From an uncultured Ectothiorhodospiraceae bacterium (lineage in GTDB: Bacteria; Pseudomonadota; Gammaproteobacteria; CAYQDX01): 43,330 nucleotides of DNA. Position 1 is the first letter of the stretch; each line of letters opens with the position of its first letter. Position numbers and translations under genes: made by a program. Of this stretch, positions 1-7,182 are shown one piece after another. Location: NCBI GenBank assembly GCA_964416345.1, contig CAYQDX010000002.1:1-43330 (forward strand), read 5' to 3'. The notes beneath the pieces were generated by a model. That model was not told the DNA's origin. It worked only from the letters and a program-made list of their open reading frames with translations, and did no database searches.

Positions 1-420
1 TATCGCCGTGGACGCCATATTGTTCGTGGGCGGCCCGTTGAAATACGGCTCGAGCACCGTGGAGCTCGCCAGGGCATTGCCCGCCGGATTGGGATCGGTG
101 CCGTTGTCCTGGGATCCGTGCATGGGGTGGCCATGGCTCGGCAATTGATTCACCGTAAGGGTTACCTTTTCCGCCCCCCCCTTGGCGCCGAGCCTGCGCT
201 CAGATAGGCCCGGACCGTGCCCGGCATGAATGGGTATGCGACCACGCAGGTCCGGCAGACCGAAGGTGGTGCGCCCGTCACCGCCGTAAATAGTGCCCAG
301 CAGGCTGAACAAGGCGTCGTTCTGCGATACCGCCAATAGTTGACCATCACAGAAGGCCCAGCCGCGGGGGGCGAAGTTTCCGGCGAACATACGGATCTCG
401 CCGACGAAAGGCTCTGACAT
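1..420 (-). CDS. Phage tail collar domain protein (MdpB-like); 5' end complete, 3' end runs off the window
   Basis: Absent from the ORF track because there is no stop inside the window. The reverse-strand ATG (cat at 418-420) is preceded by GAGGAG. My translation MSEPFVGEIRMFAGNFAPRGWAFCDGQLLAVSQNDALFSLLGTIYGGDGRTTFGLPDLRGRIPIHAGHG... stays open to base 1. FAPRGWxxCDGQ plus GGDGxTTFxLPDLRGR is the tail-collar (Pfam Collar) signature. It is a paralogue of 434..937. Confidence 0.8.
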   Translation of the reverse strand, partial: MSEPFVGEIRMFAGNFAPRGWAFCDGQLLAVSQNDALFSLLGTIYGGDGRTTFGLPDLRGRIPIHAGHGPGLSERRLGAKGGAEKVTLTVNQLPSHGHPMHGSQDNGTDPNPAGNALASSTVLEPYFNGPPTNNMASTAI

Positions 421-433
421 GGCCGGGGCTCCT

Positions 434-937
434 CTAGTTGCGGGACGGGAAAAGGCCCCGCAGTGCGATACAGAAGTTCAACGCCAGATAGGGCTGCATG
501 TTCTCGTGGGCCTGGCCACCCCCTACGTTGGTGACAGTGCCGGCTTGCAGCTGGATCAGGTTGGCAGCGCCTTGTTTGTACAGGCCTCCCACTTCCCGTG
601 CCAGGAGATGGCCCGGTGGAGTGTTGCTGTCGCCCTGGGTCGAGGAAGCTTGCAGCACATGGTCATGTTGCGGCATTTCGTTGGCGCTCAGGGTGTGGGT
701 CTCTTCACCGCTCTTTTGGCCCTCCCGGTGGCCTTCACCCACATGGATGGGCGTACGCCCACGCAGATCGGGCAGCGCGAAGGTCGTTCTGCCGTCACCG
801 CCGTAGGTGGTGCCGAGCAGCGAATAAAGGGACTGATTCTGGTTGATGGGGAGTATCTGGCCGTCGCAGAAAGCCCAGCCCCGCGGTGCGAAGTTGAAGC
901 CGACTATCCGGACCTCGGCAAGAAATGGCTCTGACAT
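434..937 (-). CDS. Phage tail collar domain protein (MdpB-like)
   Basis: From ORF 434..1105, with the start trimmed to the ATG at 937, which has AGGAGG just upstream. MSEPFLAEVRIVGFNFAPRGWAFCDGQILPINQNQSLYSLLGTTYGGDGRTTFALPDLRGR matches the collar-domain signature. Only 13 nt separate it from the next collar gene. Confidence 0.85.
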   Translation of the reverse strand: MSEPFLAEVRIVGFNFAPRGWAFCDGQILPINQNQSLYSLLGTTYGGDGRTTFALPDLRGRTPIHVGEGHREGQKSGEETHTLSANEMPQHDHVLQASSTQGDSNTPPGHLLAREVGGLYKQGAANLIQLQAGTVTNVGGGQAHENMQPYLALNFCIALRGLFPSRN

Positions 938-1037
938 GACGCCTCCTGTCCTGCAGCATGGAGATGCTGGCTGCGATGTTGCCCTATCGTTGTTACTCGT
1001 TTGAAGCCAAAAAGGCCGTTCTGTTCGGCGGCGACCC

Positions 1038-4000
1038 CTACGGCGGCGTGGGACATGCGGGCTGCCCGTAGCTAATGGTGCCGGCCGCCGTTGCAGTTGC
1101 ACCATTGTTGACCGCGCTCAGGTTGGCCACACTCGTCTGAGTCACGTTGAACGTGCCGGCCGTCTGTCTTACGCGGAGATCATCCGAGCCGCCGATATTG
1201 GTGAACGTATTGCCGGAGATATTTGCGCACTGCGTCCCGGCAAAGATGATCTGTGCATTCAAGCCCCGGTCGTCGCGGATCTGGTCCAGCATATTGTCGG
1301 TGATGGTGACGTTGGTCGTCCCGCTGGTTACGGCCTTGTTGACATAGATGCCTTCGAAACCCGCGAAAGAGCCGTTGCCAACTTCCTGAATCGTATTTCC
1401 GTCGATCAGGACCGTCGCCGTCCCGCCGCCTTCATTTGACACGCGGCTGCCACTACCCGTCTGTGAGCCCGAGGCCAAGGTGCCAAAGGTGCCCACCGTA
1501 TTGCCCTCTTCCCTGCCATCGATGGTGCTGGTATGTGAGGCATTGGCGAAGTCGTTGATGGCATAGGAGCGGGATCCGGTAATCGGAATATTGTTTTGGA
1601 ATCCGAAGATCAGTGCCCCAGCGCTCGAGGCGCTGGCCGACAATCCGACGTTGGCGTTGGTCACGGTGCCGGTCGAGGAAACGAAGCTCAGCGAGCCCGC
1701 CGCGACGTCACCCACAGCACCGAAGGCCGTCAAGGTCCCGCCACCACCGACGATGGTGCAAGCGGACATGTTGACGGTCACATTGCCGGTCCCGCCGGTG
1801 TCGACGAAGAACTGATTGGCGGCGGAACCGGATGCGCCGTCGTTGCTGAAAGTGGAATTGCTCACGGCGAGATTGGTCAAGGTGCCGCTGGTGTTGCGTA
1901 TCACCACGTCGTGCTCGTAGGAGTTTTGCACCAAGGTATTGCTGATGGTGGCCATGCCGGCCGAGTTCATCATCAGAATACCGGCCTCATCCGGTGATGC
2001 CTGATCCGCATTGTTGGTGATGCGCAGTTGATTGAATACAAAGCCGTTGACCGCCGTGCCGAAGATGCCGTTGCGATTGTTGTTGTCGACCTGCATATAG
2101 GCGAGGCTGACGTTGGCGGCGGCATTGAGCAATATCCCATCGGCTCCGTCACCGGCACCTGCCCTGTTTGCGATGGTGCCACCGCTGCATTGAGCTGCGT
2201 CGTTCTTGCAATCACCGGCACCGCTGCCGGTCACGGCAAAGCTGCCACCGGTCGTATCCAGGTCGATACCGGGTGCCGTGCCCCCGTTGGCCGAAACCGA
2301 GGTCAAGCTAATCGTTCCGTCCAGGTTGCTCAAAGCTACTGCCGTACCGGTAGTGGACGTGACACTCGCTTCGCTCACCGAAACGCCGCTGACGGCACCG
2401 ACGGCATCGTTGATGCCGGTGAGGGTGCCGGTAACGAGATTGAAGCCCTGCGCCCGCACATTGTTGCCGTTCAGCGTCAGAGTGCCCTGGATCGTAGGCC
2501 GGGTGCCACCGATGCTCGGTCTGGGAATGGTGCCGGACGGGGGGGCAATGCCCATGAGGCTATCGAAGTTGCTGCCTGTCGCTCCCTGGCCGATCAGCCA
2601 TTGGGCCATTGGCTGCGTCGCACCTCCAGCCAGCGTCACACCTACGCCCGCGCCAGTCATGCCTGTGTAGACGAAGACGCGGTGATTCACGCTGGCACCC
2701 TTGGCCGTGTTCGCCGAGGCCAAGCTGCTGAACGAACTGGACAAGGTGCCGGTGCCGTTAGTGCCCGGGCCAGGGTCGACGAACCAGATCACCGGGCCGC
2801 TGACGTTGATCGTGATGTTCGCCGGCGCGCTGGTGGCGCTGCCCGGGCAGCCGTCATCCGCCACGGTGTACTGTACGATGGCGTTACCCGTGAAGCCGGG
2901 GGCCGGGTCGAAGTCGAAGGTTCCGGCGCCGAGATTCACGTTGGAGACCGTGCCGCCGCTGCTGGAGGTGATGCTTGCAACCGAGAACGTGGGCATGCAG
3001 CCGCTCACGCCGGTATCGGCATCCGTCACCCCGGCGAGCAGGGTCGCACTATCGCCCAGGCCCAGGATCTTCATGTTCGCCTGGGCGGCGAAGCCGGTCT
3101 TGTTCTGCGCCACCGGTGGGTCGTTGACGGCATTGACGGTGATGGTGAAGGTCTGCGTGGCGGAGGTATCTACCCCACCGTTGCCCGTGCCGCCGTTGTC
3201 CATGGCTTCCAGAGTGATGCTTGCCATGCCGTTGGCATTGGCCGCCGGCGTATAGGTTAGCACCCCGCTGGAATCCACCGCCGGGCCGGCGGAGAACAGT
3301 CCCGGATTGGTGTTGGCGGTGATGTTGAAAGTGAGCGTCTGGCCCGATTCGTTGGCCGGTCCCGTGCTGATAGCCGTGGCCCAGGGATTGACAGCCTGTG
3401 GTCCGGCGTCCTCGTTGACCGTCGAATCGAGTCCCTTGGCAAAGGAAGGGGCGTCGTTGACAGGAGTGACGTTGATGACGAAGGACTGGGGCGCGGAGGT
3501 GTCCATGCCGCCGCCGGCGGTGCCACCGTCGTCCATGGCCACCAGGGTGATGGTCGCGCTGCCGTTGGCGTTGGCCGCCGGGGTGTAGGTCAGCCCCCCG
3601 CTTGAGGACACCGCCGGCCCGGCGGAGAACAATGCCGCATTGGTGTTGTTGGTGATGTTGAAGCTCACCGTCTGGCCAGATTCGCCGGCCGGACCGGGAG
3701 AGATGGTAGTGGCCCAAGGGTTGACGGTCTGCGCCCCGGCGTCCTCCAGCACTGTCTCGTCGGGGCCCTTGGTGAAGCTAGGCGGCTGATTGACCTGGGT
3801 CACGGTGATGACGAAGCTCTGGGAGGCCGAGGTGTCCACGCCGCCGTTGGCGGTACCGCCGTCGTCCATGGCTTCCAGCGTGATGGTGGCGTTGCCGTAG
3901 ACACCGGGCGCTGAGGTGTAGGTCAGCACGCCGGTCGAGGATACCGCTGGGCCGGCGGAGAACAGGGCCACGTTGGTATTGCCGGTGATGTTGAAGGTCA

Positions 4001-6734
4001 CGGTCTGGCCGGACTCATCCGGCGGGCCGGCAAGGATGGCTGTGGCCCAGGGGCTGACCGTCTGCGCCCCGACGTCCTGAGGGGAGGTCTGATCAGGCCC
4101 CTTGGTGAAGGAAGGTGCGTCGTTGACCGGCGCTACCGTCACCGTCTTACTGGTTGTGGCGCTGGGGTCGGTGCCGTCGTTGGCGACGAAATCGATCTGC
4201 CGGTCCGTGGGGTCCGGATTCTGGGAGCTGTTGTCGTAGGTGACGGTGCGCAGCACCTGCTGGTAGTTGGCCAGGGTGTCGCTGCCGCTCAGTGTTAGGG
4301 TCGGCGCCACGTAATTCGCCGTAATGGCGGTACCGCCCGTGGTGGCAGCCAGGACTTCCTTGCCGCTGTCCAGCAGGTTGGTGATGGTCACGGTGGCGGA
4401 GGCGAGGTTGACATCGTCTGCATCGGTCACGGTCACCGCGGCGTCCAGCGCCACCGGACCACCGTCTTCGATAAAGGCGGCACTGCCCGCGCTGGTCGTC
4501 ACCACCGGCAGGTCGTTCACTGATGTCACCGTCACGGTCTTGCTAGCGATGGCACTGTCGAGGGCACCGTCATTGGCCAGGAAGTCGATCTGCCGCGGCG
4601 TGGCGTCGGGGCTCTGGGAGCCGTTGCCGTAGGTAACGGTGCGCAGCACCTGCTGGTAGTTGGCGGGCGTGTCACTGCCGCTCAGGGTCAGGACGGGTGC
4701 CACGTAGCTCGCCGTGATGGCGGTGCCCGTTGTGTCGGCGACCAGGATCTCCTGCCCGGTGTCCTGGAGGTTGGTGATGGTCACGCTGGCGGAAGCCAGG
4801 CTTGCATTGTCCACATCGATGACCGTCACCCCGGCGTCCACGGCCACCGGCCCGGCGTCTTCGATGAAGGCCGTGGGACCCGCGCTGGTGGTCACCACCG
4901 GCGCGTCGTTAACCGGTGTCACCGTCATTGTCTTGCTGGCCGTGGCGCTGGGATCGGTGCCGTCATTGGCCACGAAATCGAGTTGTCGCGGTGTGACATT
5001 CGGATTCTGGGAGGTATTGTCATAGGTCACGGACTGTAGACAGGCCTGATAGACCGCCGGAGGCTGGCTGCCGGTGATGCTGAGGCTGTTGAGTCCCGGG
5101 GTCACGGTCAGTGCCGCGCAGGCGCTGGCGGCCAGCACCTCGGCCGCGCCGTCCTGGGAATTGGCGATGGTCACGGTGGCGGACGCGAGGGTGGCATTGT
5201 CCGCATCGGTCACCGTCACGCCGGCGTCCACCACTAGCGGCCCCCCATCCTCGGTAAAGGCCGTCGCGCCGCCCGTGGTGGTCACGATCGGTGGATCGTT
5301 CACCGCCGACACCGTGATGATGAAGCTCTGCGCAGCCGAGGTGTCCACGCCGCCGTTGGCGGTGCCGCCGTCATCCGTGGCTACCAGGGTGATGTTGGCG
5401 ACGCCACTGGCGTTGGGGGCTGAGGTGAAGCTCAGCGACCCGTCGGTTACGACGGTCGGTCCCGCGGCGAACAGACCGGGGTTGTCATTGGCCGCGATGT
5501 TAAAGCTCACCGTCTGCCCGGACTCGTTGGCGGGGCCCGGGGAGATGCCGGTGGCCCAGGGGCTGATGGTCTGGGCGCCGCTGTCCTCTGGCACCGTCAC
5601 GTCCGGGCCCTTGACGAAGGTGGGCGGATCGTTGACCGGGGCCACCTGGATGGTGACGGTGGCGTCCGTCGAATCGAGCTGCCCGTCGTTGGCGCGGTAG
5701 GTGAAACTGTCGGTGCCGTTGAAGTCGGCGCCGGGGGTGTAGTCGAAGGAGCCGTCGGGGTTCAGGGTGAGGGCACCGTTTGCGGTGGTGACGCCCAGCA
5801 CCGCAGTCAAGCTGGTGCCCGCATCCGGGTCCGTATCGTTGGCCAGCACGCCGGTGGCGACCGGGACGTTGAGCACGGTGTCCTCGTCGACGGCATAGGG
5901 TCCGTCGTCCACCGCCGTGGGCGCCTGATTCATGTCCGCATCGATGCGGAAGTACAACCCGCCCGCCTCCGGCGAGGCGTAGACGGTCAGGATGTCCGCA
6001 TTGAGCCCGTCACCGGGCGGGTCCGTGGCCAGCGGCGCAATCCCGGACCAGTCGTCGATCTGACCGTCCAGCACGATGGCGGCCACCGCCACGCCGATGC
6101 CACCCACCAGCAGCACCACCGCCAGCGCACCGCCGGCGACTCCGGGATGGCGGCGCAGCAGCACGGCCGCCCCCAGCAGTAGGAGCATCGCCAGGCCCAG
6201 ACCCAGGGCGGAGAGGGTGGGGATCTGGATGACGTCGGTGATGATAATAGGACCGCCGCCGGTGCTCAGCAGGGCGTCCTCGTTCCCCAGGGCATTCTCG
6301 CTGGACATGAAGCCCACCCGGATGGTGGGGTGAGTCAGCTGATCCTTGGGAAATACCGTCTCGATGACGTCCTCGCCGGCCGGGCCGTTTCCCAGGCCCA
6401 CCGGCCACGGGCCGGCCTGCACGCTGATGGGGGTACCGAAGGCGTCAGTGCTCGGGTCCACACATTCCCGCCGGCTCGCCCCGGTGACGTTGGAGCCGCT
6501 GGCATCGGTCGCCACGCCGGTGATGAGCATCTGCTCGACGCCGTCGAAGGGGCCGTCCACGGTCATCACGGTGCAGCCGGTGCCGGCGTCGTTGTCCAGA
6601 TCGAGCAGGACGCGGAATTCGGAGTCCACCGCCAGCGCGGGGGCGCTCAGCACACTGAGTAGGAAGCCTAGGCACAGGAGGCGCCAGCCTTGGTGGCCAG
6701 ACATCCAATTCTGGGAACGGGGGCGTGCGCTCAT
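1038..6734 (-). CDS. Giant surface/secreted adhesin-like protein: Sec signal, small N-domain, internal IPTL-like anchor, cadherin-like VNDxP tandem domains, C-terminal right-handed parallel beta-helix
   Basis: ORF 1038..6800 (1920 aa). The preferred start is the ATG at 6734 (GGAG 9 nt upstream), followed by the signal-like WRLLCLGFLLSVLSAPALA|VD. Residues ~390-1230 are repeated ~111-aa and ~131-aa modules, each ending in VNDPP/VNDAP. Residues ~1340-1900 are Gly/Asn/Thr-rich with NNxxNGI and ITNN-type beta-helix turns. There are no GGxGxD RTX nonapeptides. Confidence 0.85.
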   Translation of the reverse strand: MSARPRSQNWMSGHQGWRLLCLGFLLSVLSAPALAVDSEFRVLLDLDNDAGTGCTVMTVDGPFDGVEQMLITGVATDASGSNVTGASRRECVDPSTDAFGTPISVQAGPWPVGLGNGPAGEDVIETVFPKDQLTHPTIRVGFMSSENALGNEDALLSTGGGPIIITDVIQIPTLSALGLGLAMLLLLGAAVLLRRHPGVAGGALAVVLLVGGIGVAVAAIVLDGQIDDWSGIAPLATDPPGDGLNADILTVYASPEAGGLYFRIDADMNQAPTAVDDGPYAVDEDTVLNVPVATGVLANDTDPDAGTSLTAVLGVTTANGALTLNPDGSFDYTPGADFNGTDSFTYRANDGQLDSTDATVTIQVAPVNDPPTFVKGPDVTVPEDSGAQTISPWATGISPGPANESGQTVSFNIAANDNPGLFAAGPTVVTDGSLSFTSAPNASGVANITLVATDDGGTANGGVDTSAAQSFIITVSAVNDPPIVTTTGGATAFTEDGGPLVVDAGVTVTDADNATLASATVTIANSQDGAAEVLAASACAALTVTPGLNSLSITGSQPPAVYQACLQSVTYDNTSQNPNVTPRQLDFVANDGTDPSATASKTMTVTPVNDAPVVTTSAGPTAFIEDAGPVAVDAGVTVIDVDNASLASASVTITNLQDTGQEILVADTTGTAITASYVAPVLTLSGSDTPANYQQVLRTVTYGNGSQSPDATPRQIDFLANDGALDSAIASKTVTVTSVNDLPVVTTSAGSAAFIEDGGPVALDAAVTVTDADDVNLASATVTITNLLDSGKEVLAATTGGTAITANYVAPTLTLSGSDTLANYQQVLRTVTYDNSSQNPDPTDRQIDFVANDGTDPSATTSKTVTVAPVNDAPSFTKGPDQTSPQDVGAQTVSPWATAILAGPPDESGQTVTFNITGNTNVALFSAGPAVSSTGVLTYTSAPGVYGNATITLEAMDDGGTANGGVDTSASQSFVITVTQVNQPPSFTKGPDETVLEDAGAQTVNPWATTISPGPAGESGQTVSFNITNNTNAALFSAGPAVSSSGGLTYTPAANANGSATITLVAMDDGGTAGGGMDTSAPQSFVINVTPVNDAPSFAKGLDSTVNEDAGPQAVNPWATAISTGPANESGQTLTFNITANTNPGLFSAGPAVDSSGVLTYTPAANANGMASITLEAMDNGGTGNGGVDTSATQTFTITVNAVNDPPVAQNKTGFAAQANMKILGLGDSATLLAGVTDADTGVSGCMPTFSVASITSSSGGTVSNVNLGAGTFDFDPAPGFTGNAIVQYTVADDGCPGSATSAPANITINVSGPVIWFVDPGPGTNGTGTLSSSFSSLASANTAKGASVNHRVFVYTGMTGAGVGVTLAGGATQPMAQWLIGQGATGSNFDSLMGIAPPSGTIPRPSIGGTRPTIQGTLTLNGNNVRAQGFNLVTGTLTGINDAVGAVSGVSVSEASVTSTTGTAVALSNLDGTISLTSVSANGGTAPGIDLDTTGGSFAVTGSGAGDCKNDAAQCSGGTIANRAGAGDGADGILLNAAANVSLAYMQVDNNNRNGIFGTAVNGFVFNQLRITNNADQASPDEAGILMMNSAGMATISNTLVQNSYEHDVVIRNTSGTLTNLAVSNSTFSNDGASGSAANQFFVDTGGTGNVTVNMSACTIVGGGGTLTAFGAVGDVAAGSLSFVSSTGTVTNANVGLSASASSAGALIFGFQNNIPITGSRSYAINDFANASHTSTIDGREEGNTVGTFGTLASGSQTGSGSRVSNEGGGTATVLIDGNTIQEVGNGSFAGFEGIYVNKAVTSGTTNVTITDNMLDQIRDDRGLNAQIIFAGTQCANISGNTFTNIGGSDDLRVRQTAGTFNVTQTSVANLSAVNNGATATAAGTISYGQPACPTPP
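3117..4127. repeat. Three tandem ~333-bp (111-aa) intragenic repeats (module A: SFTKGPD...GAQTV.PWAT.I..GP..ESGQT.TFNIT.NTN..LFSAGPAV...G.LTYT...ANG.A.ITL.AMDDGGTANGGVDTS); a fourth, separated copy at 5301..5636
   Basis: gtcgtccatgg recurs at 3528 and 3861, giving a period of 333 bp. The protein modules at residues 892-1003, 1003-1114 and 1114-1228 align throughout, and residues 389-500 form an outlying copy. Confidence 0.8.
4125..5303. repeat. Three tandem ~393-bp (131-aa) intragenic repeats (module B: VNDxP-VVTTSAG..AFIEDGGP...VTYDN.SQNP...ANDG)
   Basis: The period was measured directly: gcgcagcacctgctggtagttgg occurs at 4248 and again at 4641, giving 393 bp. Antisense ORFs 4324..4632 and 4714..5025 translate to near-identical peptides. 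Protein copies 2 and 3 are roughly three-quarters identical by eye. Confidence 0.85.
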
Positions 6735-7182
6735 GATCCTGGTCTCCGCGCTCAGGTGAATGGCGTAGTCATGGTTGTCCTGGGGCATGGTGCCAGGCAC
6801 CCGCCAGGCTGCAGGACCGTGAGACGCCGCGGGCGGGCGGCATCACGAGGGATTGCGTCGATTCGGATGGGTGGTCACGGTGGCGTGTCGCTTTGACCCT
6901 TATTCTTTTTACCTGCCGGCGCCCGCCGTCGGACGGCCGAGACCAGTCCGTGCATTGTGACGCTGCGCTCACTCCGCAGAAGAGCTGGCTTTGACCGGCT
7001 AGTGCTCCGTTGTGCCGCAGGACGGCACACCAGAGCTTTATAACCGTCGGCACACGCCTTGTCCAGAACGAATGCCGCCGGAGGACAAAGCTCCGTACGC
7101 GCAGCCTTTGCGGCCACGCGGGCAATTGCGTAAGCTTCGCCGAGCGCCTGGTGAGCCGGGCGCATCAGCAACGGGGACCACA

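Follow-up and report, generated by a model that had tools for sequence, protein, structure and literature searches.

How is a sorting signal of the IPTL-CTERM type to be read when it lies near the beginning of a giant adhesin and not at its end? The question is raised by a contig of an uncultured Ectothiorhodospiraceae bacterium (GCA_964416345.1, CAYQDX010000002.1), of which positions 1 to 43,330 of the forward strand were analysed; this whole stretch of 43,330 nucleotides is referred to as the window. Its minus-strand open frame 1038..6800 is the giant adhesin gene, with 1,920 codons from the GTG at 6800. Residue numbers of the adhesin count from this GTG, and ATG 6734 (M23), with GGAG 9 nt upstream, is the likely start codon. 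The translated adhesin (window 1038-6800, minus strand) reads ...IIITDVIQ-IPTLSALGLGLAMLLLLGAAVLLRRH-PGVAGG-ALAVVLLVGGIGVAVAAIVL-DGQIDDWSGI..., in exact agreement with the coordinates and the string quoted for the IPTL region in a preliminary description of this DNA. The order of parts given there was also found: a Sec-type signal, a domain of about 135 residues, IPTL with a helix and an Arg cluster, and a second helix. About 1,700 residues follow the IPTL signal without any stop in the translation, in line with the continuation described earlier, and the frame is also open in the independent contigs presented below. The reading that we favour, with reasonable confidence, is that the IPTL segment is a working recognition signal of exosortase H (XrtH) placed mid-chain, and not a stray C-terminal tail; the module around it probably serves the adhesin as an integral device for cleavage and anchoring.

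By alignment with its relatives, residues 23-292 make up a conserved module, about 270 residues long, which is found at the N-terminus of giant surface proteins (its parts are listed in Table 1). A search with residues 22-300 in whole-protein context gave 17 giant relatives of 1,115-3,163 aa, with 35-46% identity and 78-100% query coverage. The bodies of these proteins are of several kinds (tandem-95/cadherin, RHS, FG-GAP/VCBS and PKD), and their first ~270 residues align end to end, with the parts in the same order. A profile made from 18 sequences and run against 1.84 billion cluster representatives (50% identity clusters) found 1,464 clusters at E<=1e-3, and 501 of these also pass E<=1e-30. 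Among the best 150 of the 1,464, the match starts within the first ~56 residues in each case and forms a single stretch over nearly the whole profile in all but three (P0081, P0139 and P0144). P0081 and P0139 end short of the profile end, P0139 running off its contig, and two of the three exceptions are contig-end fragments. P0144 shows a cadherin-like insert of ~100 residues between the N-domain and the IPTL signal, so the spacing from domain to signal is not strictly fixed. A single-protein search for related loci gave one weak match, in a metagenome-assembled genome of Flavobacteriales.

Conservation of the motif and of helix 2 was counted over 162 sequences (161 for the first signal peptide). 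The first motif position is Ile or Val in 156/162 and the second is Pro in 161/162, while Thr occupies the third in 87/162 and Leu the fourth in 105/162. Family medians are 19 residues for the span of helix 1 and three R/K for the basic cluster. At the end of helix 2, the conserved columns (of 162) are Gly at -5 (102), Ala or Val at -3 (125), Trp at -2 (106), Ala at -1 (144) and Ala at +1 (114), and this -1 Ala lies a median of 25 residues (interquartile range 24-26) from the first R/K. The same A-x-A pattern is found in the true N-terminal signal peptide of the family, with Ala at -3 in 107/161 and at -1 in 137/161. By pattern, RRH and helix 2 together thus show the basic n-region, hydrophobic core and small -3/-1 residues of a signal peptide, and the median of 25 falls within the usual length of ~20-30. 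On these counts their build is that of a common Sec-type signal peptide ending in a site for signal peptidase I. Furthermore, alignment A1 shows a nearly invariant C54 and an invariant C91 in the N-domain, as well as invariant D, G, W, R and D in the C-segment.

The signal of the adhesin has the tripartite build described for C-terminal sorting (Haft, bioRxiv 10.1101/2023.06.07.544157, section 5), with IPTL, 19 hydrophobic residues and RRH, but it does not lie at the extreme C-terminus, as it ends at residue 218 of 1,920. The TIGR04174 model (IPTL_CTERM) has a curated cut-off of 20.5 bits, and for the adhesin it gives 22.0 bits (64-aa piece), 21.9 bits (67-aa piece) and 23.1 bits (six-frame genome search). 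The preliminary description had allowed that the segment might not score against this model; the short pieces and the six-frame search place it over the cut-off, and a 197-aa piece, with 19.3 bits, places it below. In the module family, 37 of 91 hairpin segments match TIGR04174 at E<=4e-4, the best at 4.8e-10, and longer pieces of relatives score between 22.1 and 35.9 bits at this internal position. The likeness of the adhesin segment to the IPTL-CTERM sorting domain goes beyond chance, although the match of this protein taken by itself is borderline.

NCBIfam pairs IPTL-CTERM with exosortase H, TIGR04177, whose older product name was 'IPTLxxWG-CTERM-specific'. The genome has one XrtH, on contig C26, with scores of 172.2 bits (genome search) and 164.5 bits (open reading frame) against a cut-off of 86, directly followed by the XrtH-associated membrane protein NF041730 (132.5 bits versus 35). 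In addition, two canonical C-terminal IPTL proteins (IPTL, helix, Arg cluster and stop) are encoded on contigs C185 and C20. Enzyme, partner protein and canonical substrates indicate that the sorting system is present, and the adhesin is the sole candidate XrtH substrate with a mid-chain signal in this genome. The source assembly is a salt-marsh metagenome bin of 488 contigs, 82% complete, and the nearest relatives among the genomes compared share no more than its class, so that absences in this genome are weak evidence. The view of the preliminary description that the IPTL class is strictly C-terminal, with its enzyme unknown, is outdated by TIGR04177, by the curated family NF033207 ('midcut-by-XrtH') and by the XrtH of this genome. 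Just downstream of the XrtH pair, an open reading frame of 187 aa (G000:C26, L022 8612-9175, minus strand) shows a faint HslV-like (Ntn-hydrolase) match of 19.4 versus 137 bits.

Across genomes, the module occurs almost only where XrtH does. XrtH scored over its cut-off in eight of the 401 genomes of a phylum-wide sample, and the sole two module carriers, this genome and G280, are among those eight. A second sample covered 251 genomes of the order of G280, 189 with XrtH and 83 with the module; here XrtH is found in 81/83 module carriers versus 108/168 non-carriers (odds ratio 22.5, Fisher p 1.6e-10, by a test that ignores shared ancestry). Among the f17 genomes listed in this order sample, G580 is both the sole XrtH-positive genome and the sole module carrier. 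The relation is one-way: the module implies XrtH and not the reverse, as expected of a substrate.

The anatomy of the module, its conservation, the model scores, the XrtH of this genome and the co-occurrence across genomes are observations; the membrane topology, the two cleavages and the fate of the products are inferred, as follows. The first signal peptide would carry the 135-aa N-domain over the inner membrane, IPTL and helix 1 would halt transfer, and the Arg cluster would stay in the cytoplasm; helix 2 with the Arg cluster would then act as a second signal peptide and restart export of the ~1,630-residue passenger. The precursor would thus form a hairpin of two helices, and its two large parts would both lie in the periplasm. 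XrtH would cleave at or near IPTL, as is thought for ordinary IPTL-CTERM proteins, and signal peptidase I probably cleaves after AVA (between A240 and A241), so that one gene would give a small XrtH-processed domain and a giant adhesin, the hairpin being discarded. The preliminary description had proposed (a) a gene fusion of a small IPTL-CTERM protein with a downstream adhesin, (b) a helical-hairpin membrane anchor or (c) an internal processing site. These alternatives are not exclusive: (a) may be the ancient origin, (b) the precursor and (c) the function. The hairpin is very likely the topology of the precursor, and among possible functions internal processing has the best support, since the module is nearly confined to exosortase H genomes.

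Several points weigh against mid-chain recognition by XrtH. The adhesin's own match is borderline, since TIGR04174 gives only 19.3 bits on a 197-aa piece; the IPTL-CTERM pattern reported earlier therefore stands in its tripartite build and on the short pieces and falls below the cut-off on this longer one. A large subfamily with the motif VP-LSPW gives no TIGR04174 score. The XrtH gene lies on another contig than the adhesin gene and is not adjacent to it. XrtH is common (75%) in the order used for co-occurrence, where descent is left out of the Fisher test, and two module carriers, G475 (100% complete) and G670 (89% complete), show no detectable XrtH. Finally, the literature searched showed no observed cleavage for any XrtH substrate, no experimental paper on XrtH or IPTL-CTERM processing and nothing on midcut; the IPTL-CTERM domain is mentioned in passing for a Methylomirabilis S-layer protein (PMC8671808).

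A static hairpin anchor, in which the two helices hold the protein in the inner membrane with no cut and the IPTL resemblance is left over from an old fusion or results from the composition next to the helix, would have a precursor topology identical to that of the favoured explanation. AlphaFold2 gives two adjacent helices, as such an anchor would have. A relic, however, would not retain Pro in 161/162 and I/V-P-T/A-L across clusters below 50% identity, nor the A-W-A/A peptidase-type site that ends helix 2, and it would not track XrtH across genomes. Furthermore, an adhesin of ~1,630 residues held on the inner membrane of a diderm could hardly be expected to reach the surface. We therefore regard a static anchor as unlikely.

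We give similarly little credence to a single signal-peptidase cut, by which helix 2 would release the passenger and the N-domain would stay on helix 1 as a small membrane protein, with XrtH uninvolved. Such a cut agrees with the residues at -3 and -1 and with the length of 25 residues in the second element that resembles a signal peptide, and also with the location of XrtH on another contig of this genome. Against it stand the co-occurrence of module and XrtH (81/83), the scores of up to 35.9 bits that the internal signal of relatives reaches on the IPTL-CTERM model, and a conserved motif exactly at the usual place of XrtH substrates.

The integrity of the frame was addressed with independent assemblies. 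The stretch is present in public salt-marsh and soil metagenome runs, and contigs from two salt-marsh runs span 5900-6800 with one substitution and no gap (X1 as a whole, X2 as two overlapping contigs). A 16.6-kb contig of a different study spans the region with 23 substitutions and no gap; 21 of these, applied to the module, cause six residue changes, leave the frame open and do not alter IPTL, RRH or AVA. This ratio, from a related strain, indicates purifying selection on the module. The stop codon after RRH, whose recovery the preliminary description named as a refuting result, is found in none of the independent contigs, the diverged strain keeps the frame, and positions 6120-6230 show no indel in the independent contigs. 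Assembly or sequencing error as the source of the mid-chain signal was ruled out by the gap-free contigs and the strain substitutions.

A stand-alone small protein with N-domain and IPTL-CTERM was not found either, in a small-protein search that works via shared words and may miss distant forms. The sole match to residues 23-218 is a fragment on a 1-kb contig that runs on into helix 2 and 'DG', and the remaining short matches are contig-end fragments. A separate gene ending right after the Arg cluster, as the preliminary description had envisaged, was not among the matches of this search. A merger of two ordinary genes by sequencing or assembly error, or by recent strain-specific fusion, can practically be dismissed, as it rests solely on the signal looking C-terminal, while contigs from three runs of different studies lack an indel or stop, the diverged strain retains the frame, 1,464 clusters have the fused order as their rule and no stand-alone version was found in the search restricted to small proteins. 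Gene fusion as a recent event or artefact is likewise refuted by the 1,464 clusters, the varied bodies and the lack of a stand-alone gene in these searches; an ancient fusion is a plausible origin, because helix 2 looks like a complete signal peptide.

The structure of the module was predicted with AlphaFold2 on an 18-row alignment, with a mean predicted local distance difference test score (pLDDT) of 86.6 and a predicted template modelling score (pTM) of 0.78. The N-domain was modelled as a 10-strand beta domain (pLDDT 93-98), followed by the adjacent helices H176-195 and H197-217 in module numbering, and the C-segment as one short helix and one long hairpin of beta strands (pLDDT 91-95 in the module). 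When helix 2 and the C-segment were folded alone, the C-segment still reached pLDDT 88-93. Mean-field couplings were computed from 161 sequences (effective number, Meff, 158), and the 30 strongest include nine between C-segment and N-domain, two between hairpin and N-domain and two between signal peptide and N-domain. Pfam gave no match at E<=10 with the module, the N-domain alone or a permuted sequence of C-segment plus N-domain, and a profile of the permuted sequences gave no match among PDB sequences. The best hit of a fold search of the module model against the PDB (E 0.26, template modelling score ~0.13) was unusable, perhaps partly on account of the three helices in the model. A likeness of 'DGxxxDW' to CBM9/DOMON-like sandwiches found no support in the permuted-profile PDB search and was dropped.

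A more tentative extension, which we think possible but rather doubtful, is that the membrane hairpin interrupts one fold: the N-domain and the first ~50 passenger residues (LDGxxxDW...FRIDAD) would form one beta-sandwich, whose pieces would be docked after both cuts, so that a domain of two non-covalently joined chains would hold the adhesin to the cell at its N-terminal end. The pTM of 0.78, the pLDDT above 90 on both pieces and the nine of 30 couplings hint at such docking, but the C-segment folds equally confidently alone. XrtH may, on this extension, hand the small piece to a cell-envelope acceptor. If docking were true, an enzyme of C-terminal-type sorting would anchor a giant protein by its N-terminus and leave the far end free, which in RHS-bodied relatives is a toxin tip.

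Two subfamilies of the module were observed. In the large one (P0014-P0017, P0024-P0031), (V/I)PVPLSPWL stands in place of (E)IPTLSEWGL and RRRHP follows helix 1. It keeps the whole module yet scores on neither TIGR04174 nor NF033207, and its VP-LSPW motif would be an XrtH signal that has diverged or else one read by another enzyme. In P0003-P0005, P0007 and relatives, a Cys before LDG co-occurs with a Cys in 'LCFR' (CVLDG...LCFRID); the pair looks like a disulfide inside the C-segment that is specific to this subfamily.

Behind the module, the adhesin matches the tandem-95 repeat model NF012211 with 141.9 bits (cut-off 90) and also the Pfam families Big_9, Cadherin_4 and Cadherin_5; the Pfam scores are above the cut-offs, with 83.9 versus 23.6 for PF17963, 82.7 versus 26.5 for PF17892 and 64.6 versus 25.1 for PF17803. 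The last ~600 residues (~1290-1920, window 1038-2900, minus strand) have no Pfam or NCBIfam match; they are full of short repeats containing G, N, T and S, compatible with a beta-helix. At the C-terminus (...GQPACPTPP*), no recognisable sorting or type-I secretion signal was found.

Table 1. Positions of the adhesin gene and its parts in the window (a slash within a motif marks the predicted cleavage site).
Feature	Position	Strand	Basis
Longest open frame, giant adhesin	1038..6800	minus	tandem-95/cadherin matches
N-terminal Sec-type signal peptide, M23-A57 (...SAPALA/VDSE)	6630..6734	minus	sequence itself; family A-x-A pattern
N-domain, residues 58-192, with conserved Cys pair (TGC...C)	6225..6629	minus	AlphaFold2; no Pfam/NCBIfam model
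Mid-chain IPTL-CTERM-type sorting signal, residues 193-218	6147..6224	minus	TIGR04174 score, family conservation
IPTL, residues 193-196	6213-6224	minus	sequence
Helix 1, S197-L215	between IPTL and RRH	minus	hydrophobic stretch
Basic cluster RRH, residues 216-218	6147-6155	minus	sequence
Loop PGVAGG (residues 219-224) plus helix 2	6072..6146	minus	sequence
Helix 2, A225-V243, second hydrophobic stretch, AVA/A at end	6072-6128	minus	sequence, family columns
Predicted signal-peptidase-I site A240/A241	between bases 6081 and 6080	minus	cleavage inferred from sequence pattern
C-segment, residues 244-292 (LDGQIDDW...DPPGD...DI...LYFRIDADMNQ)	5925..6071	minus	conserved last part of module
Passenger: tandem-95/cadherin-like repeats (residues 293-~1290), then unmatched C-terminal region	1038..5924	minus	Pfam/NCBIfam models

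Directly downstream of the giant gene (window 1-1105, minus strand), tandem genes of ~170 aa start with MSEPF(L/V)(A/G)E(V/I)R...FAPRGWAFCDGQ, two of them visible before the contig end. In the relatives P0003 and P0010, three genes with the Pfam Collar domain (PF07484) come after the giant gene, and behind them lie DUF6916 and a GNAT acetyltransferase (L020 15891-17465; L025 13700-15277). From the downstream genes here and in these two relatives, adhesin and Collar triplet seem to belong to a single conserved cassette. In the gene neighbourhoods of four relatives no sorting enzyme adjoins, and the Collar genes are the only shared neighbours.

Few protein-sorting systems of Gram-negative bacteria have been tested as little as those of the exosortase type, and the module, compact (~270 residues) and very widespread, is a possible test object. 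Two defined cuts are expected from it, one at IPTL and the other behind A-W-A, with two products of very different size, so that cleavage, XrtH dependence and the fate of the new C-terminus should be readable on a gel or by mass spectrometry. Annotation is affected as well: this head, for which Pfam and NCBIfam have no model, is present on thousands of giant adhesins and RHS-type proteins, and gene callers or readers may take the module for a fusion or an error.

With the LPXTG/sortase, PEP-CTERM/exosortase and GlyGly-CTERM/rhombosortase systems, the adhesin shares a motif, a hydrophobic helix, a basic cluster, an N-terminal signal peptide and a paired membrane enzyme. It resembles the TIGR04174/TIGR04177/NF041730 system more specifically in IPTL, the helix of ~19 residues, the Arg cluster and the N-terminal signal peptide, in a genome that carries XrtH, the NF041730 partner and canonical C-terminal substrates. 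Unlike the proteins of that system, it continues for ~1,700 residues after the signal, and behind its Arg cluster comes another helix, which bears a site of the peptidase type.

The nearest principle is that of NF033207, 'midcut-by-XrtH protein', a family curated in silico with a 175-position model and a cut-off of 45 bits. Like the true member examined, the adhesin has an exosortase-H-type signal (I-P-x..., helix, basic cluster) near the N-terminus and a second hydrophobic helix right after it, and the module heads a large tandem-95-type adhesin in an XrtH-positive genome. On the adhesin hairpin, the model gives 21.9-24.7 bits over about positions 33-85 only, under the cut-off. Among the hairpin segments of the family, 59/91 match it at E<=4e-4 over positions 30-95, and relatives reach at most 43.5 bits on longer pieces, always at positions 30-95. 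This true member, L030 (G334:C69), scores 82-83 bits over positions 4-174 and shows the order signal peptide, ~20 residues, IPVDHPG with helix and KGR, second helix, another domain and tandem-95 repeats. It differs from the adhesin in having neither the 135-aa N-domain nor the LDGxxxDW...FRIDAD segment, and only ~20 residues separate its signal peptide from the signal. When the module was compared with this NF033207 member by hhalign, the probability was 2%, over 26 columns covering the signal only. By these comparisons the adhesin is not a member of NF033207, and its module stands for a second, much larger family that appears to follow the same principle; the mid-chain XrtH principle is already curated, though unpublished, and the module family is uncatalogued.

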